Below are positions 15,605 through 54,964 of a DNA stretch of 64,000 bases, piece by piece; within the stretch, counting starts at the first letter, position 1, and each line of letters begins with the position of its first letter. The stretch is from positions 1,378,394 through 1,442,393 of the forward strand of contig CBDBCS010000006.1 of assembly GCA_965203415.1 (NCBI GenBank), given 5' to 3'. Below the pieces are notes generated by a model that saw only the letters and a list, made by a program, of their open reading frames with translations, made no database searches and was not told the origin of the DNA. A program made the position numbers and the translations under genes. The stretch comes from Alphaproteobacteria bacterium (GTDB lineage: Bacteria > Pseudomonadota > Alphaproteobacteria > CBDBCS01).

Positions 15605-15710
15605 CCGAGACGCCTTGTTCTTGTTTCTCAGAAAAATAAACACGATTGAAGCAGATTGAGGCAGGTCTGGGCAATAGGGAGGTCTGGGCAATAGACGGCA
15701 AACGCCGCTC

Positions 15711-15719
15711 ACTATAGCA
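15711..15719 (-). promoter_or_regulatory. Extended -10-like element (TGcTATAGT) upstream of the rhomboid gene
   Basis: The minus strand reads ttgTGcTATAGTg about 105 nt upstream of the ATG at 15604. The same motif recurs at 46758-46769 and 51661-51672. Confidence 0.3.
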
Positions 15720-15865
15720 CAAAGTTTTGTGAAAGTCTTGTTCTGTTGAGGCTCGGCCCAAATTCGAACAAGACTTCGAACCCGGGTCTCAATTATAGGG
15801 CAGTATAGGGTCGTATAGGGCAGGGCATGGCTTGCGTTGCGTGTTTTTTTGTCTAGAATAGGGTC

Positions 15866-16348
15866 TCGCAGGTGGTGGACAATCGCGCTTCTGCCGGACC
15901 GCTTTCGAGTCCGCCGCAGAGGTGAGGAAAGTCCGGGCTCTTCGAGGACAGGGTGCCGGGTAACGCCCGGCGAGAGCAATCTTAGGGAAAGTGCAACAGA
16001 AAGCAAACCGCCGAATGGCTGGTTCTGAGAACGTCCCTCGAGGGAAGGGTTTTCGGACGGCGACTCGGTAAGGGTGAAACGGAGCGGTAAGAGCGCCCCG
16101 CGTTCGTGGCGACACGAACGGCAGTGTAAACCCCACCCAGAGCAAGACTTGAAGAAACTCGCACAGCAGCAGGGCTTATACAGGAGTCCTCCGGGCCTGT
16201 AATAGGGCCCCAAGTGCCAGCTCGTCCTCGGGCTGCCGAGTTGAGGAAAGTCGCTCGAGCCCCCCGAGAGGGCGGGCCTAGATGAATGATTGTCAACCCG
16301 CTCGAAAATGGGAGCGGGAAACAGAACCCGGCTTATAGCCACCTGCCC
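15866..16348 (+). ncRNA. rnpB: RNase P RNA, bacterial type A
   Basis: Universal motifs are present in order: 'GAGGAAAGTCCGGGCTC', 'CAGGGTGCCGGGTAACGCCCGG', 'GAAAGTGCAACAGAAAGCAAACCGCC', 'GGTAAGGGTGAAACGGAGCGGTAAGAGCGCCC', 'GTAAACCCCACCC' and 'ACAGAACCCGGCTTATAG'. The P1 helix pairs gcaggtggt with agccacctgc. The ends are approximate. Confidence 0.9.
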
Positions 16349-16369
16349 GATTTTGCCCGGAACTTAGGC

Positions 16370-27513: not shown

Positions 27514-27739
27514 GGAATTGCCACAGACATTCAGCTAGATTCGTCGAAATAAAGCCTAAAAAGCCCTAAAATAGGCTTCTTCCCCTGAGCATTGAGCTTG
27601 CATTCTGGTCTTTGTTTGGCCTAGACTGCGATTTCGAGGGGCATGGATAGCGGCGGTTCTCTGTTTTTTTCCGCTCCTGGTTTAGGGGCGCGCTTTTGTC
27701 TTTGCGCGGTCGTAATTGTATTGTCGAGGGCGTTTCTTT

Positions 27740-29380: not shown

Positions 29381-29445
29381 CAAACAAAACACGGGGCTTG
29401 GTAACTGCCGTCCGGAAGACGGGCAGCAGAGGGCAACGAACGGTG

Positions 29446-29699
29446 CGAGCCTATCTGGCTCGCAACAGAGGCTGTGACCGCGTGATGGGGGCTCGGCTGC
29501 TGGGGTGCCTGGTGCAAAACAGAGATTAAAACAACGCCTTGCCGACGAGCTTCGGCGCGGCGAACTGAGACGCGGCGGGTCGGTTTTCGTCGATTGTCTG
29601 CACCAGAATCCACAGAATCCTCGGCAGAACGAATTGACGTTTCGTATAGAGGCTCTGGACCCTGGCCCCGGAAAAAAGCGCCAGAAGTCTCTTGTCTGA
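29446..29699 (+). pseudogene. Relic copy of the clpA 3' end (last ~80 codons)
   Basis: The DNA aligns to clpA 27262-27513. The translated tail '[54 protein letters not shown]' is nearly identical to the ClpA C-terminus. An indel around 29515-29530 breaks the frame upstream. Confidence 0.8.
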
Positions 29700-29940
29700 G
29701 GCATTTCCACGGACATTCAGCCAGATTCGTCGAAATAAATCCTAAAAAACCCTAAAATAGCTCAAAAATAAGCTTCTTTGCCTGATATGGAGCTTGCATT
29801 CTGGTCTTTGTTTGGCCTAGACTCCGGTCTCAAGGGGCATGGGTAGCGGCGGTTCTCTGTTGTTTTCCGTCTGTTTTCCGCTCCTGGTTTAGGTGCGTGC
29901 TTTTGTCTTCGCACAGTAGTCGTTATTGAGGGAGTTTCTT

Positions 29941-32941: not shown

Positions 32942-34135
32942 CTACCGCCCCGGTGCGCTCGCGGCGAGCTTCCGGAGGCCATCGCCTTCCAACAGCCGCG
33001 AGAGGGCTTCGCTTGCCATCCTGCGCCAGAGCATGCTTTTGCTGGTGTCTCCGTCATTCCCCTGGCCGCCGAAGGTTGTTTTCTGCACGGTTTCTGCGGC
33101 AAGGAGCCGTCTTCCAGGCGATGCCTCTGCCCTCAGAGAAAATTCAAGCTTGCGAACGGAAACATTGTAGGATTTCTGACTAGACTCGGCCGTTTCATAA
33201 GAAAGAACGAGCGCAGCTTGTGGGTCGATTTGAATGCCGAATTCGAGCAATTGGTTCTCTAAAAAGGGCACCAGGGCCGTGTGTGTACGCTGTGACATCC
33301 GTTGGCCGGGGACGACTCGCATGGTGACGGCGGCCGACGCTGGGACTTCCGCGATGAGAGAAAGCTCCTGTCGGGTTTCGCGCTGCGAGCGAATCCTGAG
33401 CCGTCCTGTTTCGGCTCGGAAGCCTGGGGCCTCGATGCGAAAGAGATGCGTCCCCGGGGTCAGGAAAATCTTTTCATTCGGCCGATAGAGCGTTTCATCT
33501 ACATAGATGGCGAAGGAATCGTCGAACGGAATCGAGGACGGCGGAATGAAGCGGACCCAGCCGAGGGCTCCGAGCCTCTTTTTTAGGGCTTGTCGAGTCG
33601 CCAGCGCCTCCTCCTGGATGCGCCGATAGCCCGAGATTTCCTCTGGGGCGAAGCCCAGAGCTAAAAGCGCCAAAAGCTGTTCTACGCGGATGAGGGCTTT
33701 GTTTTGCTCTGTTTTTTTCAGAGCGTCCACATCGGGCGGGAGCTCTTGAGCCAAGGCTTCCACGGTAGCTCGGTACGCTCGGTCGGTCAGTCGAGCCGTT
33801 GCTTTCCACAGGCCGTCTCGGTCTTTTCTGTCGGACAATTCGGGCTGGACTTCGCGCAGTTCGATTTGGCTTTCGATCTGGATGTCTACAGAGTCCCTGC
33901 GGTCCAATACTTGGTTCTCCACGACCGTCAAAGAGCGCGTTTCACTCTTGACGGTGGCGAAGATAATGTTCGAGAGATTCGACATGGCGATGGCTCGGGC
34001 GCGTTGCGGGTCTTCGCTCTCGCCTTCGGCGACGAGCAGGTCTCGGGCGTGCCCGCTCTGAGCGAGGCTCGTCGCCAGGACGAAAAAAAAGAACAGAAAG
34101 ACCACGAGTCCACGCCGCCAGGGAAGTGTAAACAT
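32942..34135 (-). CDS. Secreted protein with an LPP20-like N-terminal domain and a PEGA-like domain
   Basis: Signal peptide 'MFTLPWRRGLVVFLFFFFVLATSLAQS'. An LPP20-like segment follows ('EDPQRARAIAMSNLSNIIFATVKSETRSLTVVENQVLD...'), then a PEGA-like segment ('IFLTPGTHLFRIEAPGFRAETGRLRI'). Family assignment is by eye only. Confidence 0.45.
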   Translation of the reverse strand: MFTLPWRRGLVVFLFFFFVLATSLAQSGHARDLLVAEGESEDPQRARAIAMSNLSNIIFATVKSETRSLTVVENQVLDRRDSVDIQIESQIELREVQPELSDRKDRDGLWKATARLTDRAYRATVEALAQELPPDVDALKKTEQNKALIRVEQLLALLALGFAPEEISGYRRIQEEALATRQALKKRLGALGWVRFIPPSSIPFDDSFAIYVDETLYRPNEKIFLTPGTHLFRIEAPGFRAETGRLRIRSQRETRQELSLIAEVPASAAVTMRVVPGQRMSQRTHTALVPFLENQLLEFGIQIDPQAALVLSYETAESSQKSYNVSVRKLEFSLRAEASPGRRLLAAETVQKTTFGGQGNDGDTSKSMLWRRMASEALSRLLEGDGLRKLAASAPGR

Positions 34136-34360
34136 GTGCCGCCCTCCCGAGCCGCTTCGAGGCCCCATCTCACGAGATAAATACGCTTCGTTACCCATGG
34201 CTCTTCCTGCCTTAAGTTATCCAACAAAATGAGCTCGAAGGCAAGCCCTATGTTCTATGTAAGCTCTGTCGTTCAGACACAACGCGCCACGCCCGCCGCT
34301 CTTGGGTCCGGCCCCCAGAGCAGCCCCAGCACCCGCTCCAAGGGGGGCCGCAGGAGGACC

Positions 34361-35515
34361 TTACTTCCGGACGCGGGCTGCGCCGACAAACGTCTCAAAG
34401 CCGGTTTCGATCTCGATTAAGGCCAAGACGATCCTGTAGTTCGTTTGCTGGTTGCCACTGATGTTGGCGACCGTGCCGTAGAGAACATATTGAGCCCCCA
34501 CCAAACGCCCGATCTCGACCGCCGTCTCAGAGTCCGCCAGACCGCTTTGAGCCAGTTGGACTTCTTTCATGATGGTCTCTAGGTTCCGGTTGACGACTCT
34601 AAAGAAGCGCAACTCGCTTAGGCGAATCCGGACCGACTCATTGATGAGTTGCGTGTCAATGTTTTCCCCCAAGCGACTCTCGATGGGAACGATCACCAAC
34701 GTCGGTCTGGTCGTCTCGCCGAGCTCCTCTTTCATAGCCGCCACCATCTTGTCGACGATAGTCTCGAAAGCCTGGACGTCGAAGCTCGCGGCGACCGTTT
34801 CCTGCCGAGGGGCCGAAGTCGCGGAGGCTGCCGGCTGAGGGGCCGGCGTTGCGGGGGCGGCCGCGGCCGTATTGTTTTCGCGAAGACAAGCTTTGAATGC
34901 GTTGACTACTCGACGTTCTTCGTCGCTGCCACTGGAGGTCTCCCAGTATTTGCGGAAGTCCGAGAGACACGCCCCCGTTTGGCGGATTTGCTCGGCCCGA
35001 TTTTCGCCGCCCAGAACACAAGCGGAGAATAATCCGAAGTATCGGGTTCGTTCGTCCGAGCCCCCGGGGGCATTCAAGTGTTTGCGGTAGTCCGAGAGAC
35101 ACGCCCCCGTTTGGCGGATTTCCTCGGCCCGATTGACGCCGCCCCAAACACAAGCGCGCCATAATCCGAAGTATCGGATTTTTTCGTCCGAGTCCGAGGG
35201 GGCCTTCCAGCCTCTGCGGTAGTCCGAGAGACACGCCCCCGTTTGGCGGATTTCCTCGGCCCGATTGACGCCGCCCACAACACAAGCGTAGAATAATCCG
35301 TAGTATCGGGTTTCTTCGTCCGAGCCCGAGGGGGCCGCATCCCCTCTGTCGTCGTACGACTTACACGCATTCTGAGCATGCGCCCTCTCGACGCTCAGCG
35401 TGACGCCGACGAGAGCCGTCGCGAGAACGGCTGCCCAAAAACGGACACGCCGGCTCGCCAAAAGAGCACCGCCGCGTGCCACCAATTCAGACAATCCGGT
35501 GTTTGTTTTTCCCAT
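34361..35515 (-). CDS. LpoB/FlgO-fold secreted protein, array member 1 (about 3.5 two-Cys repeats)
   Basis: 384 aa. Leader 'MGKTNTGLSELVARGGALLASRRVRFWAAVLATALVGVTLSVERAHA'. The repeats have the form '...RYFGL..AC..GG.NRAEEIRQTGACLSDYR...'. The C-terminal domain is 'PTLVIVPIESRLGENIDTQLINESVRIRL...GAQYVLYGTVA...LALIEIETG'. Confidence 0.8.
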   Translation of the reverse strand: MGKTNTGLSELVARGGALLASRRVRFWAAVLATALVGVTLSVERAHAQNACKSYDDRGDAAPSGSDEETRYYGLFYACVVGGVNRAEEIRQTGACLSDYRRGWKAPSDSDEKIRYFGLWRACVWGGVNRAEEIRQTGACLSDYRKHLNAPGGSDERTRYFGLFSACVLGGENRAEQIRQTGACLSDFRKYWETSSGSDEERRVVNAFKACLRENNTAAAAPATPAPQPAASATSAPRQETVAASFDVQAFETIVDKMVAAMKEELGETTRPTLVIVPIESRLGENIDTQLINESVRIRLSELRFFRVVNRNLETIMKEVQLAQSGLADSETAVEIGRLVGAQYVLYGTVANISGNQQTNYRIVLALIEIETGFETFVGAARVRK

Positions 35516-35689
35516 TTAGGCCTCCTTCGAGCCACGCCCCCCGCCAGAGGAAAGCACACAAAAACTGGAGCCCGCCTACACCCCGCGGCCAACCTCGGGC
35601 CGGGCCGAGACAACCCGGGGCCGAGCCGCCCCCCGGCGCCTCGCCACAGAGAGCCCCCCGGCGGAGGCCTATCGGCTCCTTTCGTCCGT

Positions 35690-35717
35690 ATCCTAGCACC
35701 AATTTTTGATTTTGCAA
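35690..35717 (-). promoter_or_regulatory. Sigma70-like promoter upstream of array member 1 (TTGCAA-16-TAGGAT)
   Basis: The minus strand reads cTTGCAAaatcaaaaattggtgcTAGGATa. Near-identical copies lie at 41343-41370 and 43863-43890. It sits about 165 nt upstream of the start codon. Confidence 0.45.
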
Positions 35718-35873
35718 GCACCTCCGCCCGCCGCCTCCGTGGAGCGGGGGCTGGTGCCGGTCATGTCAGAGAAGGGCCGCCCCCTCGCCCCCTGTCCGTA
35801 AAGAGCCTCCGGTCCGCAGAGAAAGCTCTCTCGAGGGAAAAGGCTCGCCCCCAGAGAAACCTTGGCCTAAGGG

Positions 35874-36467
35874 TTAGGGGAAGGGGAGATAAGTTTGAGG
35901 AGATACAAAAATACTAGGACGGAGGTAAGCAGTGCTTACTATTTTGAAGCTGAATATGTAGCCAACTTGCTCGTGATCTTCGATGAAATCGTCCATATAG
36001 GCCTCGAATGCATATTTTGCACCATGTTCTTTCTCCTGGAGGGTGAACAGGCCCTTTGAATACAGGTTAGCTCGAATCAAACCAATGATAGGGTCCTTCT
36101 CCTCACCCATAAATGCTTCTCCATCTGTCCTGTCTTTGAGTTCAATCCATAAAGGTGCTTTTTTGTCACCGAGCTTCTCTGTGAATTGTTCGTTGTCAGC
36201 CATTTCTTTAATCAAATTTTTGATGATAATCTCGATCAGCTGGTCGTCGACTCTCCTCACCTTAATTTCGGGCTGCCTATCAATGGAGTCTCCATCAGTC
36301 ATACTTATGATGCGAGTACATATTCCGACGATTTCCCTGCCGACGAAATCACAACCGCTCAGAGTTGTCGCAAGGAGCAAGGCTCCCAAAAAACAGGCAG
36401 AAGGCCTCGCAAAAAGAGCGAACACAGGTGCAAAAAATTCAGACAATTCAACATATTTTTTTCTCAC
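35874..36467 (-). CDS. Divergent short array member 2 (lipoprotein, low GC)
   Basis: 197 aa with a GTG start. The family leader plus lipobox 'MRKKYVELSEFFAPVFALFARPSACFLGALLLATTLSGC' is present. The remainder only loosely follows the family C-terminal pattern. GC is visibly lower than in the flanks. Confidence 0.6.
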   Translation of the reverse strand: MRKKYVELSEFFAPVFALFARPSACFLGALLLATTLSGCDFVGREIVGICTRIISMTDGDSIDRQPEIKVRRVDDQLIEIIIKNLIKEMADNEQFTEKLGDKKAPLWIELKDRTDGEAFMGEEKDPIIGLIRANLYSKGLFTLQEKEHGAKYAFEAYMDDFIEDHEQVGYIFSFKIVSTAYLRPSIFVSPQTYLPFP

Positions 36468-36593
36468 TCTTCTCTCCCTATCTCTAAGTTATTCAAGCTG
36501 CGCATGAGGCAATCCCTATCGTTCGACACGCCCGACACGCCACGACCTTCGCCCCCGGCCGCCATGTCGTCAGAGAAGGACCGCCCCCCTCGC

Positions 36594-37634
36594 TCACCGG
36601 CCGTTAAGCGGCTCCAGTCCGTGCTGGAAAAGGCTCCCTCCCCCGAGAATCTGCCTGGCTTCACCGGTACCGGTCCAAACATCAAGACCGGACCGAGTGT
36701 TGGTTACGGTCAAGGTGAGTGTGTGGACAATATCATCACCTTCGTCACTTTTTTTAGCGGCTATGGATCCGTTGAGCACATATTGAACTCCGGCCAATTG
36801 CCCGAGCCGGGTGACATTATGGGAGTCTGCCAGAAGATCAACGCTTGGTATCGGGTATTGTTCTTGAAGCAGGGTCTTCTCCGCCAGAGGATTCCAGTTC
36901 ACAAGGGTGAACTGGTTCGCTTCATACAGGCGAACTTGAAGCGTATCATTGACAATTGGCGTGTCAATGTTTGCATTCGACCGATTTGTGATGGGAGTGA
37001 CCAGTAAAGTCGGTTCGGGTCCGGTAGCGCGGAGTTCCTCTCGTAGAAAGAGGTCGGCGCCCATTTGTGCGATCACGTCGTCGGCAAGATTCCCGAAAGC
37101 CTGGATATCGAGGCTTGTTGCTACGGAAAGCTCACTTTCCTTAGGCTCAAGTGCCTCACGTACCTTACGTAGCTGTTCCGCTTTTTCCTCTCCCTCATTT
37201 TCCGCAATTGTTTCAATACCACCTAAATTCACCCCACTCCAAAACCCCGAGCGACAACGCGACTTTTGGTCTCTTTCTAATTCGCTTCTGCCGCAGGTCT
37301 CTAGGTAGAAGTCAAGAACCTCAAGTTCCGCTTTTTGCTCACTCTCACGTACCTTACGTACCCGTTTCACGTCTCCTTCAGTTTTTTCCGCAAGTTCTTC
37401 AATTTCCTCCCATTCCTGAGTGGAACAAACAACACGTTCGTCGCAGCGGACGATTTTTTCTTCCAATTCATCAGAGCGGGCGATTATTTCCTGGGAGTAG
37501 CCGTAGCCCGGGAAGAGAAAGCTGCTCAGAGTCATCGCAACGAGCACGACTCCCAGAAAACAGGCAGAAGGCCTCGCAAAAAGAGCGAGAAGAGGTGCAA
37601 AAAATTCAGACAATTCAACGTATGTGTTTCTCAT
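36594..37634 (-). CDS. LpoB/FlgO-fold array member 3 (class II central cassette)
   Basis: 346 aa from 'MRNTYVELSEFFAPLLALFARPSACFLGVVLVAMTLSS'. The central cassette is acidic and Cys-containing. The C-terminal domain is 'PTLLVTPITNRSNANIDTPIVNDTLQVRL...GVQYVLNGSIA'. Confidence 0.75.
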   Translation of the reverse strand: MRNTYVELSEFFAPLLALFARPSACFLGVVLVAMTLSSFLFPGYGYSQEIIARSDELEEKIVRCDERVVCSTQEWEEIEELAEKTEGDVKRVRKVRESEQKAELEVLDFYLETCGRSELERDQKSRCRSGFWSGVNLGGIETIAENEGEEKAEQLRKVREALEPKESELSVATSLDIQAFGNLADDVIAQMGADLFLREELRATGPEPTLLVTPITNRSNANIDTPIVNDTLQVRLYEANQFTLVNWNPLAEKTLLQEQYPIPSVDLLADSHNVTRLGQLAGVQYVLNGSIAAKKSDEGDDIVHTLTLTVTNTRSGLDVWTGTGEARQILGGGSLFQHGLEPLNGR

Positions 37635-37759
37635 TTGGTCCTCCGTTTGGCTAAAGGTTAATCTTATCACAAAACGGCCCTCCCGGGCAACCCGGGTCAC
37701 CTTACCAAAGAGAAAATTCAACTACAAGTTAAATTTTCTGTTTTTTTCTATTTATTTTT

Positions 37760-38664
37760 CTATTTTTGAGTTATTGCCGCAGGAGGCCCCGCCCGCGAGG
37801 CCGTCTTATGGACTTCGGCCTCATCTACCCAAGCGTCAAGTCCCGTTTCAATCTCGGTCAAGACCAGGGTGAGCGTGTAGACAATTTGCACTTCGCTCTC
37901 TTGGCGCGTGCGTATCGCCGCGATAGACCCGTGCAGGACATATTGAGCCCCAAGCATTTGTCCGACCTCGGCGGCCGTATCAGAGTCCGCCAGACCGCTT
38001 TGTTCCAATTGTTGCTCTTGCAGCAGAGTCTCTAGTTGGCCTCGACTCACGGGGGCAAAAAGGCGAGCTTTACTCAGGCGGACTCGGAGCGCATTGTGGA
38101 TGAGGTGCACGTCCACGTTCGCATCCGACCCATGCCTCAGGTGGTGTCGTTGCTCTCAGGGGTTGCCTCACGTTCAAGGGCCTCACGTATCGCACGTAGC
38201 TCACGGAGCTGTTCCGCGGTTCCCTCCTTTTCCGCAATGGCTTCAAGATAATCAAAACCCCAAACGCCCCCCGAGCGACAATGCCACGTTCGGTTGCCAT
38301 CCGCACAGAGATCTAAATAGACGCCAAGAATCGCACGGTCCATCGTTTCTCTCTTGCTGCGTCCATAGTCGCGTATCCTACGTACCCGCTCCACATCTTG
38401 CCCTGTTCTTTCCGCATAGTCTTCAATCTTCTCCCATTGGGCAGCGGAACAAATAGACACCCAGGAGCCGCCGTTGCGGCCGTTGGGGTTGAGCAATAAA
38501 GCCTCGCATCTGTTCAAGGCGTTTTCCAATTCACGTTGCTCCACGGAGACACTACAACCGCTCAGAGTCGCCGCAACGAGGACGACTCCGAGAAGATAGG
38601 CGGATACTCTAACGGGTCGGCCGGCGTATCGACCCGTGTATCGGCCAGAGTCTGTTTTTCTCAT
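37760..38664 (-). pseudogene. Array member 4, disrupted by an internal deletion and frameshift
   Basis: The N-terminal ORF (38137-38664; leader with lipobox 'ATLSGC' and a class II cassette) stops at TGA. The C-terminal domain resumes in another frame at '..GSDANVDVHLIHNALRVRL...GAQYVLHGSIA'. About 50 codons corresponding to the 'FG..AF...PTLL..PI.N' segment are missing. Confidence 0.7.
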
Positions 38665-38706
38665 TTGAGCCTCCTTCGAGTCACCATACCGCCACACCCA
38701 CGCCCG

Positions 38707-40299
38707 CTAGGACGTTTTAATGACTTCGGCTGCCTCGAGCCACAAATCAGCACCGGTTTCAATGTTGGTTACGATCAAGGTGAGTGTGTAGACAATCTGC
38801 AGGCCGCCACTCTCGAGCGTGCGTATATCGTCGGCGATGGAGCCGTGGAGCATATATTGAGCTCCGAGCGTTCGCCCGACCTGAGCGGCACTCTCGGCGT
38901 CCACCAGGTCGCCCAGTGTTTGTTCTTGAAGCAGGGTCTCTAGGTGGTCTCGCCTCACGAGTTCAAAGAGGCGCTCTCGATTCAGGCGAACTCGAACCAA
39001 ATTATGGATGAGTTGCGTGTCAATGTTTGCTCCCGACCGGTTCTCGATGGAGGCGATCAGTAAAGTCGGTTTGGTACCGCCGAGGTCCTCTTTGAGACCG
39101 AGGTCGGTGCCCATGTTTTTAATCACGTCGTCGGCAAGTTTTTGGAAATCTCGGACACCGAAGCTCGCTGCGAGAGCTGCCTCAAGGGCCTCACGTTCCT
39201 CCTGTGTCAGACTTGCCTCACGTGTCTCAGGTGCCTCACGTGTCTCACGTGTCAGACTTGCCTCACGTGTCAGACTTGCCTCACGTGGTGTCTCACGTTC
39301 CTCATAACGCCCCTCCTCTTCGCGGACTTTGTCAAGCAGATTTCCGCCGCGCACCAAAAACAGATGTCCGAACGCCTCCTCAATCTGCTTACAAGCGTAC
39401 TCTAAGCTGTAGTATAAGTCTTCTGTGTGCGAGCGGTCAGCATCCCGGGCTTCGCTCCGGTACAAGATACACCCACTACTCAAACCACGTTCCAGGTGTT
39501 TTCTGACTCTTGTGACCGTACGTTCGCCGCCTCTATCACAAGCGTAATAGAATATGTCGTATAGGATTATTGCGTACGAGTCCGCGGGGGACGCCTCGTA
39601 TTTGTAATAGTACGAGTCACACGGATCATAATTTTCTCGAAGACAAGCTTTCCATAAGTTGAATTGTCGTTCTTTTGCGTCGCCCTTCCGGGGGGCAGAC
39701 TCCCGTTTGCGGTAGTCCGAGAGACACGCGCCACTTTCGCGGATTTCCTCGGCCAGATTTTCGCCGCCTTCAACACAAGCGGAGAATAATGCTGCGTATA
39801 GCATTTGTGCGTCCGAGCCCGAGGGGGCATTCCGGGCAGCATTCCAGTATTTGCGGTAGTACGAGATACACGCGCCACTTTGGCGGATTTCCTCGGCCCG
39901 ATTGACGCCGAACCAAGAACAAGCGTAGAATAATGCTGAGTATAGGATTGTTTCGTCCGAGCGTGCATTCCAGGATTTGCGGAAGTACGAGATACACGCG
40001 CCACTTTGGCGGATTTCCTCGGCCCGATTGACGCCGAACCAAGAACAAGCGTGATATAATGCCCAGTATAGGTGGTATTCGTCCGAGTCCGAGGGGGACG
40101 CACGGTATCTGTCCCAGTACGAGTCACACGCATCCTCACGAGCACTCCCAACGCTCGGCGTGACGCCAACGAGAGCGAGCACGAAAACCGCCGCTAAAAA
40201 ACGGACATGCCGACCCGCAAAAAGAGCGAACACAGGGGCCAACAATTCAGACAAGCCTGTGTATCGGCTAGCGTATCGGTCAGAGTCTGTTTTTCTCAT
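38707..40299 (-). CDS. LpoB/FlgO-fold array member 5 (about 5 degenerate two-Cys repeats plus a REASLT tandem)
   Basis: 530 aa from 'MRKTDSDRYASRYTGLSELLAPVFALFAGRHVRFLAAVFVLALVG'. The repeats have the form '..LY.AL(F/Y).AC.(W/E)(F/G)G(V/E)N(R/L)AEEIR(Q/E)SGAC(I/L)S(Y/D)(F/Y)RK'. The C-terminal domain is 'PTLLIASIENRSGANIDTQLIHNLVRVRL...GAQYMLHGSIA'. Confidence 0.8.
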   Translation of the reverse strand: MRKTDSDRYASRYTGLSELLAPVFALFAGRHVRFLAAVFVLALVGVTPSVGSAREDACDSYWDRYRASPSDSDEYHLYWALYHACSWFGVNRAEEIRQSGACISYFRKSWNARSDETILYSALFYACSWFGVNRAEEIRQSGACISYYRKYWNAARNAPSGSDAQMLYAALFSACVEGGENLAEEIRESGACLSDYRKRESAPRKGDAKERQFNLWKACLRENYDPCDSYYYKYEASPADSYAIILYDIFYYACDRGGERTVTRVRKHLERGLSSGCILYRSEARDADRSHTEDLYYSLEYACKQIEEAFGHLFLVRGGNLLDKVREEEGRYEERETPREASLTREASLTRETREAPETREASLTQEEREALEAALAASFGVRDFQKLADDVIKNMGTDLGLKEDLGGTKPTLLIASIENRSGANIDTQLIHNLVRVRLNRERLFELVRRDHLETLLQEQTLGDLVDAESAAQVGRTLGAQYMLHGSIADDIRTLESGGLQIVYTLTLIVTNIETGADLWLEAAEVIKTS

Positions 40300-40528
40300 G
40301 TGAGCTCCCTTCGAGACACGCCCCTCGCAAGAGAAATAGGCCGAGTTTCCCCTTTCTCTTCCTATACACCCAGGCCTGCGGCCTCGGGCTCCGGGTCTGG
40401 GGCCGGCCCCGGGGCCGACCATGCCAGAAGAAGCGGCCTCGTTGGCAACAGCTCGCCCCCGGGGGCCCCTCGCCCGGGGCACCCCGGGGCCACCCCGGGG
40501 CCGGGGAACCCCAGGGGGAACTCTCGGC

Positions 40529-41191
40529 CTAAAAGAGCCCCCGCGAGGACGTTTTACTGACCTCGGCTTCATCGACCCAATAGTCGATGCCGGTCTCGAG
40601 TTCGGTCAAGGTCAAGACGACTTTGTAGAAAATCTGTTGGTCGCCACTCTCGCGCGTCCGGATATTCGCGATGGACCCGTGCAAGAGATATTGAGCCCCA
40701 ACCAACCGCCCGATCTGGCTGGCACTATCGGGGTCCGCGAGACCGCTTTCGCCCAATTGCTGCTCTTCGAGCAGGGTCTCCAGGTGGTTCCGGTTCACAA
40801 AGGTGAAGAGGCGAGCTCGATTCAGGCGGACTCGAATCGAGTCATTGATGAGCTGCGTGTCAATGTGCTCATCCGACCGATTCACCACAGGCGAGATCAG
40901 TAAAGTCGGCCTGAGATCGCCCAGATCCTCTTTGAGACCGCGGTTGGTGACCATGGCCTCGACCATATCGTCGACGATTTTCCGGAAATCTCGGACGCCG
41001 AAGCTCGTGGTGAGCGCTTCCTCGCCCGCCTGGTTTTCGCGGACGCCGCCACAGCTGCCTAGAGTCGTCGCTAGGAGGACGGCTCCTAAGAAACAGGCCG
41101 AGCGCCTCGTGAAACGACTCGCGAAACGACCCGCGAAAAGAGCGAGCCCAGTGGCGAAAAATTCAGACAATTCAAGGTATTTTTTTCTCAT
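40529..41191 (-). CDS. LpoB/FlgO-fold lipoprotein, array member 6 (minimal form, no central repeats)
   Basis: 220 aa from 'MRKKYLELSEFFATGLALFAG...LLATTLGSC', with a lipobox. This is directly followed by the family C-terminal domain 'FGVRDFRKIVDDMVEAM...PTLLISPVVNRSDEHIDTQLINDSIRVRL...GAQYLLHGSIA'. Confidence 0.8.
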   Translation of the reverse strand: MRKKYLELSEFFATGLALFAGRFASRFTRRSACFLGAVLLATTLGSCGGVRENQAGEEALTTSFGVRDFRKIVDDMVEAMVTNRGLKEDLGDLRPTLLISPVVNRSDEHIDTQLINDSIRVRLNRARLFTFVNRNHLETLLEEQQLGESGLADPDSASQIGRLVGAQYLLHGSIANIRTRESGDQQIFYKVVLTLTELETGIDYWVDEAEVSKTSSRGLF

Positions 41192-41342
41192 TTCCTTCTC
41201 CATTTGACTAAAGGGTTAGTTTATCCCAAAAAACGGCCTTCTCGGGAGCCCCGGGACACCCGGGACGACCCGCGACCAAGCCCGGGAGTTTCGCCGCCTC
41301 GAGGCGGCCCCGGAAGAGGTCTTCGGCCATTTCTCTGCCTCT

Positions 41343-41370
41343 ACCCTAGCACCAATTTTTGATTTTGCAA
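41343..41370 (-). promoter_or_regulatory. Sigma70-like promoter upstream of array member 6 (TTGCAA-16-TAGGGT)
   Basis: The minus strand reads tTTGCAAaatcaaaaattggtgcTAGGGTa. Twenty-two consecutive nt are identical to the copy at 35690-35717. Confidence 0.45.
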
Positions 41371-41525
41371 GAATCTCCGCCGGGCCCGAGACCCAAACTG
41401 CCGTCTCTGCCTCGGCTGCCGCCTCCTCCGGGGAGCCTCCTGCGTGGTGTGTCGAGGCCTGGCGGCTCCGTCAGAGCCGGAGCAGACCCAGAGCCGGCCC
41501 GCTCCACGGGGCCGCAGGAGCGGCG

Positions 41526-42491
41526 TTACTTACGGACTTGGGCTGCTTTTTCAAAAAAGTTAGAACCTTGAGTTTCAAGCTCGATTAAGGTCAAAAAGAC
41601 TCTGCAGTTCGTTCGATCACCGGCGACGGTGCCGTGGAGCACATATTGGACTCCGACTATTCGCCCGATCTCGGTCGCCGTATCGGAGTCCACGACCCCG
41701 CTTTGGGGCTGTTGTATTTTTTGAAGGATTTTCTTTACATTCCGGCTTGAAACTTTAAAAAAGCGCAAATCGCTCACGAGAATCCGAATCGACTCATTGA
41801 TGAGTTGCGTGTCAATGTCTTCCCCCACGCGACTCTCTATGGGAACGATCACTAAAGCCGGTTCGGCATCCTCGCCGAGCTTTTGTTTCAAGTTCGCCGC
41901 CATGTTGATGATGACGGTCTCTAAAGCGAAGGTCGGTGCGACCGTTTCCTGCTCCCGGGCCGGATTTTTTTCGCGAAGACAATTTTCCAATAAGTTGAGT
42001 TGTCGACGTTCTTCGTCCGAGTTCTCGGAGGCGTCCCAGAATTTGCGGTGGTATGAGAGACACGCCTCAGTTTCTTGGATTTCCTCGGCCAGGTTTTCGC
42101 CGCCCTCAAGACAAGCCCACCATAATGCGTTGTATCGGATTTCTTTGTCCGAGCCCGAGGGGGCCTCCCAGAATTTGCGGTGGTATGAGAGACACGCCCC
42201 ACTTTTTTTGTCGATTTCCTTGAGCCGCTTTTCGCCGCGGCCGAGCCCAGCACAAAGCTTCCGGGATTTGTATTCTCGGCCTTCTTCGTCCGAGTCAGTG
42301 GATTTGTACGAGAAACAGGCCTCAAGAGGACTAGGAATAGGAACAGGAACAAGAACAGGAATACAAGAGCTCAGCGTGACGCCAACGAGAGCCGTCGCCA
42401 GAACGGCCGCCAAAAAACGGACACGCCGACTCGCCAAAAGAGCGAGCCCGAGTGCCAAAAGTGTAGACAATCCGATGGTTGTTGTTCTCAT
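41526..42491 (-). CDS. LpoB/FlgO-fold lipoprotein, array member 7 (about 2.5 two-Cys repeats)
   Basis: 321 aa. The leader 'MRTTTIGLSTLLALGLALLASRRVRFLAAVLATALVGVTLSSC' carries a lipobox. The repeats include 'GACLSYHRKFWEAPSGSDKEIRYNALWWACLEGGENLAEEIQETEACLSYHRKFW'. The C-terminal domain is 'PALVIVPIESRVGEDIDTQLINESIRI...GVQYVLHGTVA'. Confidence 0.8.
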   Translation of the reverse strand: MRTTTIGLSTLLALGLALLASRRVRFLAAVLATALVGVTLSSCIPVLVPVPIPSPLEACFSYKSTDSDEEGREYKSRKLCAGLGRGEKRLKEIDKKSGACLSYHRKFWEAPSGSDKEIRYNALWWACLEGGENLAEEIQETEACLSYHRKFWDASENSDEERRQLNLLENCLREKNPAREQETVAPTFALETVIINMAANLKQKLGEDAEPALVIVPIESRVGEDIDTQLINESIRILVSDLRFFKVSSRNVKKILQKIQQPQSGVVDSDTATEIGRIVGVQYVLHGTVAGDRTNCRVFLTLIELETQGSNFFEKAAQVRK

Positions 42492-42543
42492 TTCTTTCTC
42501 CGTCTAGCTTCTGATAGGAAAAGGTGGAGGCCGCAGGAGGACG

Positions 42544-43650
42544 CTACTTACGGACTCGGGCTGCGTCGACAAACACCTCAACACCGGTTTCAGTCTCGAT
42601 TAAGGCCAAGACGACTCTGTAGTGCGTTTGCTGATTGTCATTTATGTTGGCGACGGTGCCGTAGAGTACATATTGAGCGCCGATCAAGCGTCCGATCTCG
42701 ACCGCCGTGTCAGAGTCCGCGAGATCGCTTTGGGCCAGTTGTAGTTCTTTCAGGATGGTCTCCAGATTCCGGCTCACAATTGTAAAAAAGGGCACCTTGC
42801 TCAGGCGATTCCGAATCGACTCATTGATGAGTTGCGTGTCAATGTCTTCACCCACACGCTTATCGATGGGAACGATCAGTAAAGTCGGTCTGGCATTCTG
42901 GCCGAGCTCCTCTTTCAAGGCCTCCACCATGTCGTCGACGATGGTCTCGAAAGCCTGGACGCCGAAGCTCGCGGCGACCGTTTCCTGCCTACGGGCCGGA
43001 CTTATTTCGCGAACACAAGCTTTCCATAAGTTGAGTGGTCGAACTACCTCGTCATTGCCCCGGAAGGCCTTCCAGTATTTGCGGAAGTCCGAGAGACACG
43101 CCCCAGTTTCGCGGATTTCCTCGGCCAGGTTTTCGCCGCCCAGAACACAAGCGGTGAATAATCCGTAGGGTAGGATTTCTTCGTCCCCGGGGGCCTTCCA
43201 CCCTTTGCGGAAGTCCGAGAGACACGCCCCAGTTTCGTGGATTTCCTCGGCCCGATTTTCGCCGCCCAGAACACAAGCGGTGAATAATCCGAAGTATCGG
43301 ATTTCTTCGTCCGAGTCCGAGGGGGCCTTCCAGTATTTGCGGAAGTCCGAGAGACACGCCCTAGTTTCGTGGATTTCCTCGGCCCGATTGACGCCGCCCC
43401 AAGCACAAGCGTTCCATAATGCGGCGTATAGGATTCTTTCGTCCGAGCCCGAGGGGGCCGCCTGGTGTTTTTCACCATACAAGTCACACACATCATTAGC
43501 ACGAGCACTACCAACGCTCAGCGCGCCGACGACGAGAGCGGTTGCCAGAACAGCCGCCCAAAAACGGACACGCCGACTCGCCAAGAGTGCGCCTCCGAGC
43601 GCGACGCCGCGTGCCAAAAATTCAGACAATCCGATGGTTATGTTTCTCAT
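42544..43650 (-). CDS. LpoB/FlgO-fold secreted protein, array member 8 (about 3.5 two-Cys repeats)
   Basis: 368 aa. The leader is 'MRNITIGLSEFLARGVALGGALLASRRVRFWAAVLATALVVGALSVGSARA'. It has three clear repeats and the C-terminal domain 'PTLLIVPIDKRVGEDIDTQLINESIRNRL...GAQYVLYGTVA...LALIETETG'. Confidence 0.8.
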   Translation of the reverse strand: MRNITIGLSEFLARGVALGGALLASRRVRFWAAVLATALVVGALSVGSARANDVCDLYGEKHQAAPSGSDERILYAALWNACAWGGVNRAEEIHETRACLSDFRKYWKAPSDSDEEIRYFGLFTACVLGGENRAEEIHETGACLSDFRKGWKAPGDEEILPYGLFTACVLGGENLAEEIRETGACLSDFRKYWKAFRGNDEVVRPLNLWKACVREISPARRQETVAASFGVQAFETIVDDMVEALKEELGQNARPTLLIVPIDKRVGEDIDTQLINESIRNRLSKVPFFTIVSRNLETILKELQLAQSDLADSDTAVEIGRLIGAQYVLYGTVANINDNQQTHYRVVLALIETETGVEVFVDAARVRK

Positions 43651-43862
43651 TTGTTCTCTCCGTCTAGCTGGGTGATATGAAAAGAGGTGGTCTTATCCCA
43701 AAAAGGTCCTTTCGGGCGTTCTGGGGCATCTCAAAGTGTATAAAAGAAAGAGCACAAAATTGGAGCGCACAAAGATTCCTCCCGGGGCCACCCGGGACAT
43801 CCGGAACCAAGACTGGAAGCCTCGCCGGAGCCGGAGCCGATCTTTTTCAAATTTTCGACCAT

Positions 43863-43890
43863 AATCTAGCATCTTTTTTTGATTTTTCAA
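43863..43890 (-). promoter_or_regulatory. Sigma70-like promoter upstream of array member 8 (TTGAAA-16-TAGATT)
   Basis: The minus strand reads cTTGAAAaatcaaaaaaagatgcTAGATTa. It is a diverged copy of the motif at 35690 and 41343, about 205 nt upstream of the start codon. Confidence 0.4.
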
Positions 43891-43964
43891 GAAATTTCGC
43901 CGGGGCCCGAGAACTCCAAAACAGCCGCCGCCCGCCACCTCCTCCCCGGCCCAGAGTCTGTTCG

Positions 43965-45579
43965 TCAGACGGTGCGCCCTAACCATTGCCACTCGAGCGG
44001 CGTAACACGCCGGTCATAATCTTGGGCCTCGGCGCGTTTGACCTCGGTTAGGACATGGTGAAATTCCGCGTTGAGAAACTTTCTCGCACTCGAGCTTTGC
44101 TCGAAGAGGGTGACAGCCTGACTCAGGTGGAGCGGGAAAGCACGCCGCCCGCCCGAAGCACGAGACGGCCGCCTCGAAGCCACGGGCCCCGTCAGAACCG
44201 GCGGTGGCAACACCGGCGAGCCCGCCTCTGGCCCGGCCTCCGCCCCGGCCTCCGCCCCGGCCTCCGCCGCCCCGGCCTCCGCCGCCCCGGCCTCTGTCTC
44301 CGACAGGCCCGTCAGCATCCCCAGCACCACCCCAATCAGAGCATTATACGGATTGGTGTCGGCGCCGGGCACTCGGAATTCCAGCCTCGCGTCGCCGCCC
44401 GCCGTGCGAGGAACCCGAACCGCCACAAAACGATTGTCAAACCCGTAATCGGCACACACAGGGGCAAAATTGAGCGGGTCCAGAAAACGCTTATAGGCGT
44501 TGCTATTGTGCGCGAAAAGCAGAAAGTTCTCGCCCATGGTCTCCAGCAAGCCCCAAAGAGCGCGCCGCATCGCGAGGGGCAAGGCGTCTCGACGCCACCC
44601 CTGCATGAGATTGTGTCTCGTTTTCTTGTCCCAGAGGCTGACGTGGATATGCAGGCCGTTGCCGCTCCACAGGTGGTGCGGTTTGGCCATAAAACAGGCG
44701 AGGAAACCGTGTTGTCTCGCGATGTGTTTGATCATCCGCTTCATCAAGAGCGTCTCGTCCCCAAGCCGACACAAATCGCCATGGTGCCAGAGATTCGCCT
44801 CGAACTGGCCGGTGGAGGATTCTTTGGACAGCCCAGACAGAGGCAACGCCAGGTTCTTCGCTTCTTTCTGAAGGCGCTCCAGGAACGGGCGATAGTCCTG
44901 CATGGCCGCGTCGGCTAAGAGGTGCTCTGTGTCGTCCGGTGCGTTCGACGAAGGATTGTGCGCATAAGCCGGCAAGCCTCCTGGCTGGTCTGCGGCCTGG
45001 ACTAGTGTGAATTCCAACTCGCAGCTGCATTGGAGTTCGTAACCCAGGTCTCCCAGGCGCGCCACCAGCCGAGCCAGCTGGCCGCGGGCGTCTCCGGCGT
45101 ATGCGCGGCCCTGTGACGGGAAGCTCGGGCGTCGCCTCTGCCGGCGCCGTCTCCGCCAGAGGGTCCCCCAGAGGGTCTAGAGAGGACTCACACATTTGCA
45201 CCAGGACACAAGCCGTCTCGGGCGTATCCGTGTAAACCCCCAGCGTGCCAGGGAGCGGAAAACAATAGAGATCCGGTTCTCCCGCTTGAACGACCCTGCC
45301 GGTTCCGGGCAGATTCACGCCATGCGAGCACAGCATCACCGTAGAGCGCGGGAAAAAGACGCCGTGCTCTGAAAAAAGAGAAGCCGCCTTCGAGACGTCC
45401 ACCGTCTTACTGCGCAGAATCCCGCTCAGATCGGGCAGCAGCAGGTCAAGCTGTTGAAGGCCAGGATGAGCTCGGCGAAACTTTTCCCACGGCTCGCGCA
45501 TGGCCCCCGGCATGGCCCCCGGCGAGGCAGCAGCAGCAGCAGCGGCGGACAGACTGGAGGCAGAATGTGACGGACTCAT
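43965..45579 (-). pseudogene. Glutamine synthetase family protein (GlnA/PuuA-like), apparent frameshift
   Basis: The N-terminal beta-grasp domain is in one frame (45579 down to about 45110). The catalytic domain ('CSCELEFTLV...FMAKPHHLWSGNGLHIHVSLWD...') is in another frame (about 45150 down to 43965), and that second frame is closed by TAG at 45177-45179. There is also an (EAGA)n insert. Confidence 0.6.
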
Positions 45580-46908: not shown

Positions 46909-48777
46909 ATGCCTGACCTACTCGAAGAACTCGAGGCCCTGCTCGCTCGAGACGAACGCTTCGTCCAGAACGGGCGCGTGATGAGGAATAAAGTCGTCAC
47001 AGAGGCCCTCAAGCTGGATAGAGGTCTCCTGGAGGCTCTTCTGGCGTCCGACCCTCTGAGACAAGCCTTTTTCGCCAAAGTCGGCGAGCTCTGGGTTTTT
47101 GACAAAGTCAAATTCACGCAATTTGTCCATCACAAAAGCTTCCTGCCAGACAGTTTTACAAGGTTCAAAAATAAAATAGGCCTCGGACAGAAAGACGTGC
47201 TGCTGTCCGAGCTGGATGAATTCGTGCTCCATTGGCCCTATAAGGACTGCACGCTGGAGGCCGGCCAGACGCGCCCCAACCAAAAACGAACCGAGTTCTT
47301 CTGGAATGAGCTCCTCGCCCGTTCAGAGCTGGACCTATTCCTGGAACCTAAAGTCCTGACCCATTTCAAACGCTTCTCTTCGAGCGGCGTGAGCGAGGTA
47401 GAAACGCTCTGCGACGACGATAATCTGGTGATCAAGGGCAATAATTTACTGGTTCTGCACACGCTCAAAAAGCGTTATGCGGGTCGAGTGAAACTCATTT
47501 ACATAGACCCGCCTTACAATACGGGTAAGGACAGTTTTCTCTACAACGATCATTTCCGGCACAGCACATGGTTGACGTTCATGAAAAATCGTCTCGAGCT
47601 CGCCCGGGACTTTTTGTCCAAAGAGGGCGTGATATTCGTGCAGTGCGACGACCACGAGCAGGCCTATCTCAAAGTGCTCATGGACGAGATCTTCGGGCGA
47701 GACCATTGTGTCGGTACGTTTCTGTGGAAGAAAAATAAAAGCGGGAATCAGAACACGCGTTATATGGCCCTCCAGCACGATTACATTCTGGCCTTCGTCA
47801 AAGAGAAAGGCCAGACACAATGGCGCGTCTCGTACACGCAAGAGGACCTCGCCGACTATAAAGAACGAGACGGGCAGGGGGTGTTCTACTGGAAGCCCGT
47901 CGCCCACGCCACAAGAGGCAAAACCCGAACGCTCTCGTATAGAGGCGAGACCCACCACATCGAAAAAAGTGTCTACGCCTCCGACACTTTGAAAGAACTC
48001 CTGGACCTCGGCGAGGCGTGTTTCCGGAAAAACAAGCACGGGGTGCAACAGCTGTACAAAAAACAGCGTTTGAAGAAAGGCACCTTGCCGTACTCTTTGA
48101 TGGACGCCAGGCGGTTCCCGATGAACGAGGACGCGAATAAAGAGCTCGCCGCCCTCTTCGGGGAGACCGCCGTTTTCGAGACCGCCAAGCCCGAATATCT
48201 CCTTTTCTATCTCATAGACATTGCGACGCGTCCCCAGGATCTTGTGATGGACTTTCATCTCGGGAGCGGCACCACGCTCGCCGTTGCGCACAAAATGGGG
48301 CGCCGCTATATCGGGGTCGAACAAATGGATTACATAGAACCCATTGTGGTCGAACGCATGAAAAAAGTCATCCAGGGCGAGCAGGGAGGCGTCTCCCCGC
48401 ACGCCTCTTGGCGCGGCGGCGGCGACTTCGTCTATTGTGAATTGATGGCTCTGAACCAGGCCTATGTCACGCGCATAGAAAGAGCCCGCTCGCATCCGGA
48501 ACTCTTGGCTTGTTGGGACGACCTCCTCCTGGAGGCGAAAGCGCATCTGAAATATCATCTGCGAAAGAGTCTGTTGAGAACTTCACGGGACGCCTTCGAG
48601 GCTCTGGCGTTTGAGGAAAAAAAACGCATGCTCCTAGAGCTTCTGGATAAAAACATGCTGTATGTGCCGCTCTCGTCTCTGGAGGACCAAGAGTATCGCA
48701 TAGAGGAACGCACAAAAAAACTGAACGCTTTTTTTGCCTCGTCTCCTTCCCCGCCGAGTCCGCCAGAAGCAACGTGA
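46909..48777 (+). CDS. mod: Type III restriction-modification system methyltransferase (Mod)
   Basis: 622 aa. It carries the catalytic motif IV 'LIYIDPPYNTG' and the AdoMet motif 'DFHLGSGTTLAVAHKMGRRYIGVEQ' in beta-class order. The N-terminus 'MPDLLEELEALLARDERF' is typical of Mod. Confidence 0.85.
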   Translation: MPDLLEELEALLARDERFVQNGRVMRNKVVTEALKLDRGLLEALLASDPLRQAFFAKVGELWVFDKVKFTQFVHHKSFLPDSFTRFKNKIGLGQKDVLLSELDEFVLHWPYKDCTLEAGQTRPNQKRTEFFWNELLARSELDLFLEPKVLTHFKRFSSSGVSEVETLCDDDNLVIKGNNLLVLHTLKKRYAGRVKLIYIDPPYNTGKDSFLYNDHFRHSTWLTFMKNRLELARDFLSKEGVIFVQCDDHEQAYLKVLMDEIFGRDHCVGTFLWKKNKSGNQNTRYMALQHDYILAFVKEKGQTQWRVSYTQEDLADYKERDGQGVFYWKPVAHATRGKTRTLSYRGETHHIEKSVYASDTLKELLDLGEACFRKNKHGVQQLYKKQRLKKGTLPYSLMDARRFPMNEDANKELAALFGETAVFETAKPEYLLFYLIDIATRPQDLVMDFHLGSGTTLAVAHKMGRRYIGVEQMDYIEPIVVERMKKVIQGEQGGVSPHASWRGGGDFVYCELMALNQAYVTRIERARSHPELLACWDDLLLEAKAHLKYHLRKSLLRTSRDAFEALAFEEKKRMLLELLDKNMLYVPLSSLEDQEYRIEERTKKLNAFFASSPSPPSPPEAT

Positions 48778-48821
48778 CCACCGAGGTGACCCGGGCCGCA
48801 TAAGGCTCCCCCCCCAAGACG

Positions 48822-54951: not shown

Positions 54952-54964
54952 TAGGCCGGGAGGA

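Follow-up and report, generated by a model that had tools for sequence, protein, structure and literature searches.

LpoB (YcfM) is an outer-membrane lipoprotein that activates the penicillin-binding protein (PBP) PBP1B. It is covered by the profiles PF13036 and TIGR02722, and it is laid out as an export signal, a spacer formed by a disordered linker and a C-terminal domain. The subject of the present analysis is a tandem array of eight genes in a stretch of 64,000 nucleotides (nt) of contig CBDBCS010000006.1 (assembly GCA_965203415.1), hereafter called the window. The array products share with LpoB a homologous C-terminal domain, the same succession of export signal, spacer and domain, and, in four members, an apparent lipobox. 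However, eight copies stand here in tandem, whereas a single one is found at each of 80 ordinary loci; hypervariable cassettes of Cys repeats, predicted to be structured (predicted local distance difference test score, pLDDT, of 70-90), stand in place of the disordered linker; three members seem to have no lipid anchor; the genomic context is non-canonical; and the identity to the nearest relatives is 30-36%. The array is read here, with moderate confidence, as a multigene family that is specific to this lineage and encodes exported envelope proteins, in which a variable-surface repeat is mounted on a conserved LpoB-fold module, the family evolving by recombination and positive selection.

Other described systems resemble parts of this arrangement. 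Mycoplasma lipoprotein families of the Vlp/Vsp type combine a conserved 5′ region and signal peptide with repetitive mature parts. As in these families, the array paralogs share an upstream region and a leader, carry variable tandem repeats, are clustered and differ in content from strain to strain; in contrast, the array keeps a folded C-terminal domain, its units are structured and helical rather than of low complexity, no phase switch was identified, and the cell is Gram-negative (diderm). The Hcp proteins of Helicobacter are built of Sel1-like repeats with one disulfide per repeat. Like the presumed exported proteins of the array, they are built of alpha-helical repeats in which each unit has its own Cys pair, they occur in paralogous families, and a role in binding is presumed, but the array unit has 44 amino acids and three helices, is fused to an LpoB domain, lacks any Sel1 or TPR match and has no homologue beyond this lineage. 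In Borrelia (vlsE with its silent cassettes) and Neisseria (pilE/pilS), variation arises by segmental gene conversion. Variable microsegments between invariant tracts, arrayed copies and mosaic sequences are common to these loci and the array; however, all array copies look expressible, and neither an expression site nor variation within a clone is in evidence.

Organization of the array

The preliminary description of this DNA had listed eight co-directional genes, and the list of open reading frames (ORFs) agrees with it: eight co-oriented ORFs occupy 34361-43650 on the minus strand, numbered m1 to m8 by rising coordinate. Four of them carry a middle segment termed the type A cassette. In m1 (34361-35515; 384 amino acids) the leader is followed by a four-unit type A cassette (34871-35374), a Pro/Ala linker (34796-34870) and the LpoB domain (34364-34795). 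In m8 (42544-43650; 368 amino acids), a leader with an Ala-x-Ala type site and no lipobox precedes a four-unit type A cassette (43000-43497) and the LpoB domain (42547-42978). Downstream of its leader, m5 (38707-40299; 530 amino acids) has four type A units (39628-40137), two variant units termed A′ (39367-39627), a TREASL linker (39175-39300) and the LpoB domain (38710-39174), while m7 (41526-42491; 321 amino acids) consists of a leader with the lipobox LSSC, a three-unit type A cassette (41964-42326) whose first unit is degenerate, and the LpoB domain (41529-41942). A second kind of middle segment, type B, is present in m3 (36594-37634; 346 amino acids), where a leader reading LSSF precedes an acidic four-Cys cassette (37125-37496) and a divergent LpoB domain (36597-37124), and in m4 (37760-38664), which is disrupted: the N part (38137-38664) holds a lipobox leader and a type B cassette and then meets a stop, and the C part (37760-38116) holds a partial LpoB domain. 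Without any cassette, m6 (40529-41191; 220 amino acids) joins a leader with the lipobox LGSC to the LpoB domain (40532-41011), only about 15 residues lying between lipobox and domain. Finally, m2 (35874-36467; 197 amino acids) combines the family leader, with the lipobox LSGC, and an orphan C-terminal domain of 158 residues (35877-36350).

For three members the start was chosen inside the longest ORF, namely m3 at 37634, m5 at 40299 (MRKTDSDRY) and m6 at 41191. A ribosome-binding site (RBS) of the GGAG type lies 6-8 nt before each of these revised starts, as in the remaining members. A common leader had been proposed, and it is confirmed by two leader DNA motifs, one with 6 and the other with 7 occurrences in the window, exclusively in the array, against a chance expectation of 0.4-0.5. 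The leader, about 40 amino acids long, is bipartite: M-R-K-x4-LSEF-x-A-x3-ALFA is followed by a basic stretch and a hydrophobic segment. Lipobox and non-lipobox leaders are mixed, as had been claimed. By rule of thumb, a lipobox is recognised in m2 (LSGC), m4 (LSGC), m6 (LGSC) and m7 (LSSC), and m1, m5 and m8 have an Ala-x-Ala type cleavage site and no lipobox, which would leave these three without a tether to the outer membrane. The lipobox Cys is replaced in the LSSF leader of m3, and the homologue of this gene on a related contig (L083) has LSSC. A T-run, a GATAAGA-like element and the RBS are found upstream of several members and likewise upstream of the array genes of a related strain.

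Taken together with their cleavage motifs, these leaders suggest that the array proteins are exported. The Cys-rich passenger would argue for the Sec route rather than for twin-arginine translocation (Tat). Tat export of the leaders that bear SRRVRF (m1, m7 and m8) was rejected, as the Tat signal models of Pfam and TIGR01409 gave no match at E values up to 1. A run of seven A residues stands right after the start codon (ATG/GTG) of m2 (36455-36467) and of m6 (41179-41191) (AGAAAAAAATA), and these runs are possible slipped-strand sites.

The C-terminal LpoB domain

The assignment of the C-terminal domain to the LpoB family, first made from recurring sequence patterns, holds for seven members. 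Against the Pfam model PF13036, for which the gathering score is 22.3 bits, the scores were 63.6 bits for m1, 54.7 for m3, 70.3 for the C part of m4, 67.8 for m5, 109.7 for m6, 36.2 for m7 and 67.7 for m8, all above the cutoff. The NCBIfam model TIGR02722 has an equivalog cutoff of 110.55 bits, which only m6 passed, and narrowly (113.6 bits); the other members scored 37.5-72.6 bits and m2 gave no score. When the AlphaFold model of m8 was searched with Foldseek, the top PDB match was the C-terminal domain of E. coli LpoB (4q6z_A; probability 0.99, E = 0.036, 26% identity), the model having a pLDDT of about 50 in this part, and no match was found in BFVD. A phmmer search of the PDB with m6 also led to LpoB (4q6l, E = 0.006). 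Several members match CsgG above the gathering score, these matches being restricted to the alpha/beta motif common to the two families.

The case of m2 is less clear. No Pfam or NCBIfam model matched it, and a homologue search returned m2 alone. Aligned to an LpoB profile of 87 sequences, it scored 6.1 bits in register, a score equalled in 2 of 2000 shuffles, and hhalign aligned it to LpoB with E = 0.012-0.026, again in register. Judged from these alignments, its C-terminal domain is probably a very divergent LpoB-like paralog. In view of this weak signal, the eight LpoB paralogs of the preliminary description are to be counted as seven certain and one probable.

One disrupted member had been expected, and m4 is disrupted in both strains available for comparison, the sister strain being represented by contig L002, and perhaps also by contig L001, of an independent metagenome assembly. 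Three-frame translation shows an in-frame stop after the cassette and the loss of the first 50 or so amino acids of the LpoB domain, so the C part is an LpoB-domain remnant without a leader. The split is identical in the sister strain, where the remnant (37760-38116 in the window) is kept at 2470-2814 of L002. With 9 nonsynonymous and 9 synonymous differences, its ratio of nonsynonymous to synonymous substitution rates (dN/dS) is 0.33, and that of the N part is 0.35. Although the counts are small, the remnant does not have the appearance of a pseudogene in free decay.

The middle cassettes

The type A cassette of m1, m5, m7 and m8 is a tandem repeat with a period of 126/132 nt. Its unit comprises 44 amino acids in the pattern C-x26-C-x16, with Cys spacings of 27 and 17 residues. 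Four units are present in m1, four in m8, three in m7, and four plus two A′ units in m5; these Cys-pair counts agree with the 3.5, 3.5, 2.5 and 5 copies estimated earlier for m1, m8, m7 and m5. Likewise, the separate acidic Cys cassette noted for m3 and m4, and the lack of a cassette in m6, were both found again; the type B cassette is an acidic four-Cys segment unrelated to type A. In the AlphaFold model of m8 the cassette is all-helical, with a pLDDT of 70-90 and three helices per unit, here called a, b and c. The first Cys is placed at the start of helix a and the second near the end of helix b, which fits one disulfide per unit; on this model, a disulfide would staple helix a to helix b.

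The type A repeat is an orphan. Pfam searches at E values up to 10 gave no match for the isolated cassettes or for m2, and the Sel1 and TPR models gave none on the isolated cassettes at the same threshold, so that a Sel1 identity was rejected. Neither the cassettes nor m2 had a match among PDB sequences, and PADLOC and PHROGs had none for the cassettes, m2 or the conserved gene downstream of the array (dn). A type A profile run against 1.84 billion representative proteins recovered this lineage alone, plus two spurious repeat proteins, and m8 run against 5.8 billion clustered proteins recovered five proteins, all from this genome or from one metagenome sample. Profile scans of genome contigs with m8 and with a four-sequence alignment of the LpoB domain revealed no relative. 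In the linker of m5 (39175-39300), a 9/45-nt tandem repeat codes for TREASL-like units, and its length differs in the sister strain in the manner of a variable number tandem repeat.

Selection and recombination

The preliminary description took the array for a diversifying rather than a housekeeping family, and the substitution pattern is in keeping with this, as dN/dS is 2.1-2.7 in the cassettes against 0.06-0.55 in the LpoB domains. Rates were calculated by the method of Nei and Gojobori, m1′ being the ortholog of m1 on L002. Between m1 and m1′, the cassettes differ by 58 nonsynonymous and 7 synonymous changes (dN/dS 2.7), while the LpoB domains differ by 1 nonsynonymous and 5 synonymous changes (dN/dS 0.06). 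For the downstream gene and its counterpart (dn and dn′) the numbers are 23.5 and 25.5 (dN/dS 0.30). The contrast between the m1 cassette and dn is significant in a Fisher test (p = 1.9e-6), and so is the excess over neutrality in a binomial test (p = 0.008). Other pairs of cassettes gave a dN/dS of 2.26 (m1 and m8, p = 0.010), 2.12 (m1 and m7) and 1.53 (m5 and m5′), and the LpoB domains in the paralog and m5 comparisons gave 0.34-0.55. The LpoB domains are under purifying selection.

Variation within the type A unit is concentrated at a few positions. Among the 13 complete units, many conserved codons are represented by one codon only, including the rare Leu codon TTA. By contrast, positions 5, 8, 9, 10, 18, 19, 22, 26, 29 and 30 each show 4-9 codons, with variation at all three codon positions. 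These hypervariable codons are flanked by invariant framework tracts of 20-55 nt, and the differences between m1 and m1′ fall on the same unit positions. The hypervariable residues are rich in aromatics and Arg and lie on helices a and b, whereas helix c and the framework are nearly invariant, synonymous sites included. Aromatic residues make up 31% at the hypervariable positions against 8% elsewhere, and the variable positions of helix b cluster on a single side (moment 0.52, permutation p = 0.005). The variant states of m1′ recur in other units at 37 of 47 sites, a figure to be read with the high probability of chance presence at hypervariable sites.

Several observations show that the modules have been recombined. 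The leader, cassette and LpoB-domain groupings disagree: by LpoB domain, m1, m7 and m8 form one group, m4, m5 and m6 another, and m3 stands alone; by leader, m1, m7, m8 and in part m5 fall together, as do m2, m3 and m6, and m4 stands alone; by cassette, m1, m5, m7 and m8 are of type A and m3 and m4 of type B. Between m1 and m8, dS is 0.105 in the cassette, compared with 0.416 in the leader and 0.347 in the LpoB domain (p = 1.6e-4), and this three- to fourfold lower value points to homogenisation or to a recent cassette exchange. In addition, a gene of the sister array, termed L1a, is a mosaic of m1-like and m1′-like tracts (66 informative sites, 24 runs, permutation p = 0.011). The idea of a swappable middle, put forward from the sequence patterns, is supported by the discordant groupings and by this mosaic cassette. 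A search for invertible elements or strong inverted repeats found nothing convincing, and an invertible promoter was therefore rejected.

Related arrays and ordinary LpoB loci

Contig L002 carries m5′-m4′-m3′-m2′-m1′-dn′ in the order of the window, with 95.7% identity over 6.7 kb. The agreement in gene order between two independent assemblies excludes an assembly artefact for this part of the array. The divergence is uneven: the LpoB domain of m1 is 98-100% identical, and the type A cassettes are 80-93% (m1) and 61-89% (m5) identical. A block of low GC content that includes m2 and m3 (35759-37757; about 50% GC, compared with about 58% around it) is 100% identical to L002 except for one 1-nt indel, whereas its flanks differ by 1-5%, which suggests a recent transfer or sweep between strains.

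Array content varies between strains. Contig L001 corresponds to the side of the array with the restriction-modification and glutamine-synthetase-like genes, where it is 85-90% identical to the window, and its array members are unlike those of the window. They are L1a, which has a leader and a type A cassette and no LpoB domain; three genes joining the leader to small novel Cys domains; a 350-amino-acid paralog with an A′ cassette; and a frameshifted type A gene. The three small genes stand in tandem at 6869-8702, with the family upstream element and leader, short and mutually different Cys-containing domains and no LpoB domain, and hence the leader module also joins other passengers. In L083, a type B paralog adjoins a dn homologue.

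A metagenome scan found 80 ordinary LpoB loci at 30-36% identity, each with a single LpoB domain; for 30 of the 80, more than 15 kb of context was available. The canonical hinT-ycfL-lpoB-thiK context is seen at L005. The array locus of the window, by comparison, is non-canonical, with eight tandem copies between a glutamine-synthetase-like gene and ispA. In the literature, no description of LpoB paralog arrays or of the type A repeat was found. The LpoB domain is already known, while the array, the repeat and the mode of evolution are new.

Flanking genes and other features of the window

Directly downstream of the array lies dn (32942-34198, minus strand), a conserved predicted exported protein of 418 amino acids. 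Its only homologues are three, all adjoining arrays in the same metagenome sample. The preliminary description had likened this gene to LPP20 and FlgP, and this likeness did not stand: no Pfam model, LPP20 and PEGA included, matched the whole protein at E values up to 1 or its N-terminal 136 amino acids at E values up to 10. Neither NCBIfam nor PDB sequence and profile searches gave a meaningful match, to solved FlgP or Lpp20 structures or otherwise, and no similarity to the LpoB profile was seen. The AlphaFold model of dn has a pLDDT of 35.8 and is unusable for fold comparison.

On one side the array is flanked by ispA and an SBP_bac_5 gene. On the other side lies the glutamine-synthetase-like gene (43965-45579, minus strand), which is split over two overlapping frames; the sister copy is split elsewhere, and the gene is either a pseudogene or affected by a sequencing error. 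Within it, a 12/15-nt tandem repeat at 44224-44294 codes for an Ala/Glu/Gly-rich insert. It is followed by a Type III restriction-modification system (46909-51599, plus strand; mod 46909-48777, res 48822-51599), which is about 90% identical in the sister strain.

The remaining window is ordinary chromosome, with leuA, leuC, thrC, formate-tetrahydrofolate ligase, a TRAP transporter, dusA, clpS/clpA, acs, ribBA, sarcosine oxidase, ccmB, a porin and RNase P RNA. The last is a bacterial class A RNase P RNA at 15867-16351 (plus strand; 258 bits), whose 485 nt, compared with a model of 367 positions, indicate sizeable insertions, and it overlaps a spurious ORF at 14927-16342. Large ORFs without a Pfam match are present at 5370-9584 (minus; 1404 amino acids), 3968-5341 (minus; 457 amino acids), 27566-29716 (minus; 716 amino acids) and 52786-54954 (plus; 722 amino acids). 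The 1404- and 457-residue ORFs also lack an NCBIfam match, and the ORF at 52786-54954 lies in DNA of 65-68% GC with a GC skew of -0.22 to -0.27.

Interpretation and alternative explanations

In the reading as a diversifying envelope family, each gene would consist of a 5′ module (T-run, GATAAGA-like element, GGAG RBS and two-part leader), an optional cassette and an LpoB-fold domain. The type A cassette would be a solenoid of 44-residue, three-helix units in which a Cys pair staples helix a to helix b, and its surface would bind ligands, either in the periplasm or at the outer membrane. Its specificity may have been diversified by positive selection at exposed positions, and also by exchange, through recombination or gene conversion, between the near-identical framework tracts that units and paralogs have in common. 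Such recombination could likewise move whole cassettes between leaders and LpoB domains and alter the array content between strains. The LpoB-fold domain would then be the constant docking or anchoring module, and its partner need not be PBP1B. Phage, a host or the toxins of competitors may be the selective agent.

Some points weigh against this reading. The sister comparison relies on one independent assembly from one metagenome sample (ERZ25068803), represented by a few short contigs, and L001 and L002 may come from one genome or from two. The AlphaFold model of m8 was built on six sequences, and its LpoB part has a pLDDT of only about 50. Gene conversion could have left the “orthologous” cassettes partly non-orthologous, in which case some of the excess in dN would be imported paralogous variation; this caveat is countered by the observation that all unit and paralog cassette comparisons also have a dN/dS above 1. 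A constraint acting on the nucleotide sequence might also account for the invariant framework codons, and neither the two parts of m4 nor m3 nor dn gives any sign of positive selection.

The explanation nearest to the LpoB literature, that these are ordinary LpoB-type activators of class A PBPs, with paralogs as redundant or condition-specific peptidoglycan regulators and helical cassettes as rigid spacers in place of the disordered linker, appears improbable. It would account for the score of m6 above the LpoB equivalog cutoff, the purifying selection on all LpoB domains and the spacer-like differences in cassette length between members, and it gains from the report that E. coli LpoB depends on a long, disordered and periplasm-spanning linker, about 145 Å in length, for contact with UB2H, the docking domain of PBP1B (PMC6220978). 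However, a dN/dS above 2 at one-sided, aromatic-rich positions is unexpected of a spacer, m1, m5 and m8 have no lipobox, the hinT-ycfL-lpoB-thiK context is absent at the array locus, ordinary LpoB loci are single-copy, and the nearest LpoB relatives are only 30-36% identical. Bona fide LpoB and UB2H were reported to be restricted to enterobacteria (PMC3060616), and as the host is probably no enterobacterium, a UB2H partner is doubtful; the gene content of the window hints at an alphaproteobacterium, with the best SoxA matches, in a plasmid collection and mostly to Alphaproteobacteria, at only about 45% identity. No PBP gene lies within the 64-kb window. A role in PBP1B activation is unlikely for the cassette-bearing members, although m6 could be such a regulator. 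Slightly better placed, though still unlikely, is the view that the array is a bank of immunity or decoy proteins in the periplasm, each cassette neutralising one variant of the cell-wall-targeting toxins of competitors (type VI secretion, contact-dependent inhibition or bacteriocins) or of phage proteins. Tandem exported paralogs, diversifying selection and gain and loss from strain to strain match such a pattern, the Type III restriction-modification system is close by, and an LpoB fold would locate the proteins at the machinery of peptidoglycan synthesis. Against it, none of the window ORFs scanned was recognised as a gene for a toxin, type VI secretion, contact-dependent inhibition or a bacteriocin, PADLOC and PHROG gave no match, and the proteins are bigger and more modular than typical immunity proteins; moreover, such a bank is really a sub-case of the envelope-family reading in which the ligand is named.

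Gene conversion also underlies a distinctly improbable alternative, namely programmed antigenic or phase variation of the vls/pilS type, in which one or a few expressed genes receive segments from other copies, truncated ones included, within the life of a clone. Like the immunity bank, it may be a sub-case of the envelope-family reading. The invariant 20-55 nt tracts around hypervariable codons, the mosaic cassette of L1a, the truncated or disrupted copies kept in both strains with substitutions that do not look neutral, and the A7 runs after the start codons of m2 and m6 would all fit it. Nevertheless, no copy looks silent, since each is equipped with an RBS, a leader and an upstream element; a search for invertible elements and strong inverted repeats gave none; and none of the window ORFs scanned was recognised as a recombinase gene. 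That the genes encode a FlgO/FlgP-type (LPP20) scaffold for an outer-membrane or flagellar ring is very unlikely and, by sequence, already largely refuted. This reading could draw on weak FlgT_M matches, on CsgG matches that exceed the gathering score and cover only the common alpha/beta motif, and on the conserved exported-type protein dn downstream. The FlgO-type relation proposed earlier was not recovered, however: no FlgO model matched any member, and the FlgT_M scores of 15.6-18.4 bits remain below the cutoff of 31.2 bits; dn lacks LPP20, PEGA and FlgP similarity in Pfam and PDB profile searches; and among the window ORFs scanned there are no flagellar genes, as had been noted from the outset. 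Least credible of all is that the hypervariability stems from a diversity-generating retroelement or from an assembly or sequencing artefact. Variation confined to a few codons in otherwise invariant DNA might recall either, but the substitutions are spread over all 12 types without adenine specificity, all three codon positions vary, and the window ORFs scanned include no reverse transcriptase, so a retroelement of this kind within the window was rejected. The independent assembly has the same gene order, and 100% identity over an adjacent 2 kb between the two assemblies implies a low error rate.

Implications

The envelope-family reading can be carried further, though the step is a speculative one and we consider it unlikely. 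The array would then be a natural combinatorial library of disulfide-stapled helical-repeat binders, in which the invariant tracts guide a rapid recombination that redistributes hypervariable helix faces between units, between paralogs and with truncated copies, and the products would act as a programmable repertoire of periplasmic or surface receptors docked through the LpoB-fold module. Such a repertoire, if it exists, would be a bacterial counterpart to receptors made of variable repeat proteins.

In enterobacteria the LpoB fold is known from an activator of a cell-wall synthase that occurs in single copy, and here it forms the constant end of a fast-diversifying, recombining family, whose hypervariable, aromatic-rich positions resemble a binding site. 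Should the reading as a diversifying envelope family be correct, a fold of the LpoB/TolB-N type would be able to serve as a general docking module, and the type A repeat would provide a new disulfide-stapled scaffold with natural framework and paratope positions, useful to protein engineering. The array would also show arms-race evolution clearly at work in the cell envelope of an uncultured bacterium.

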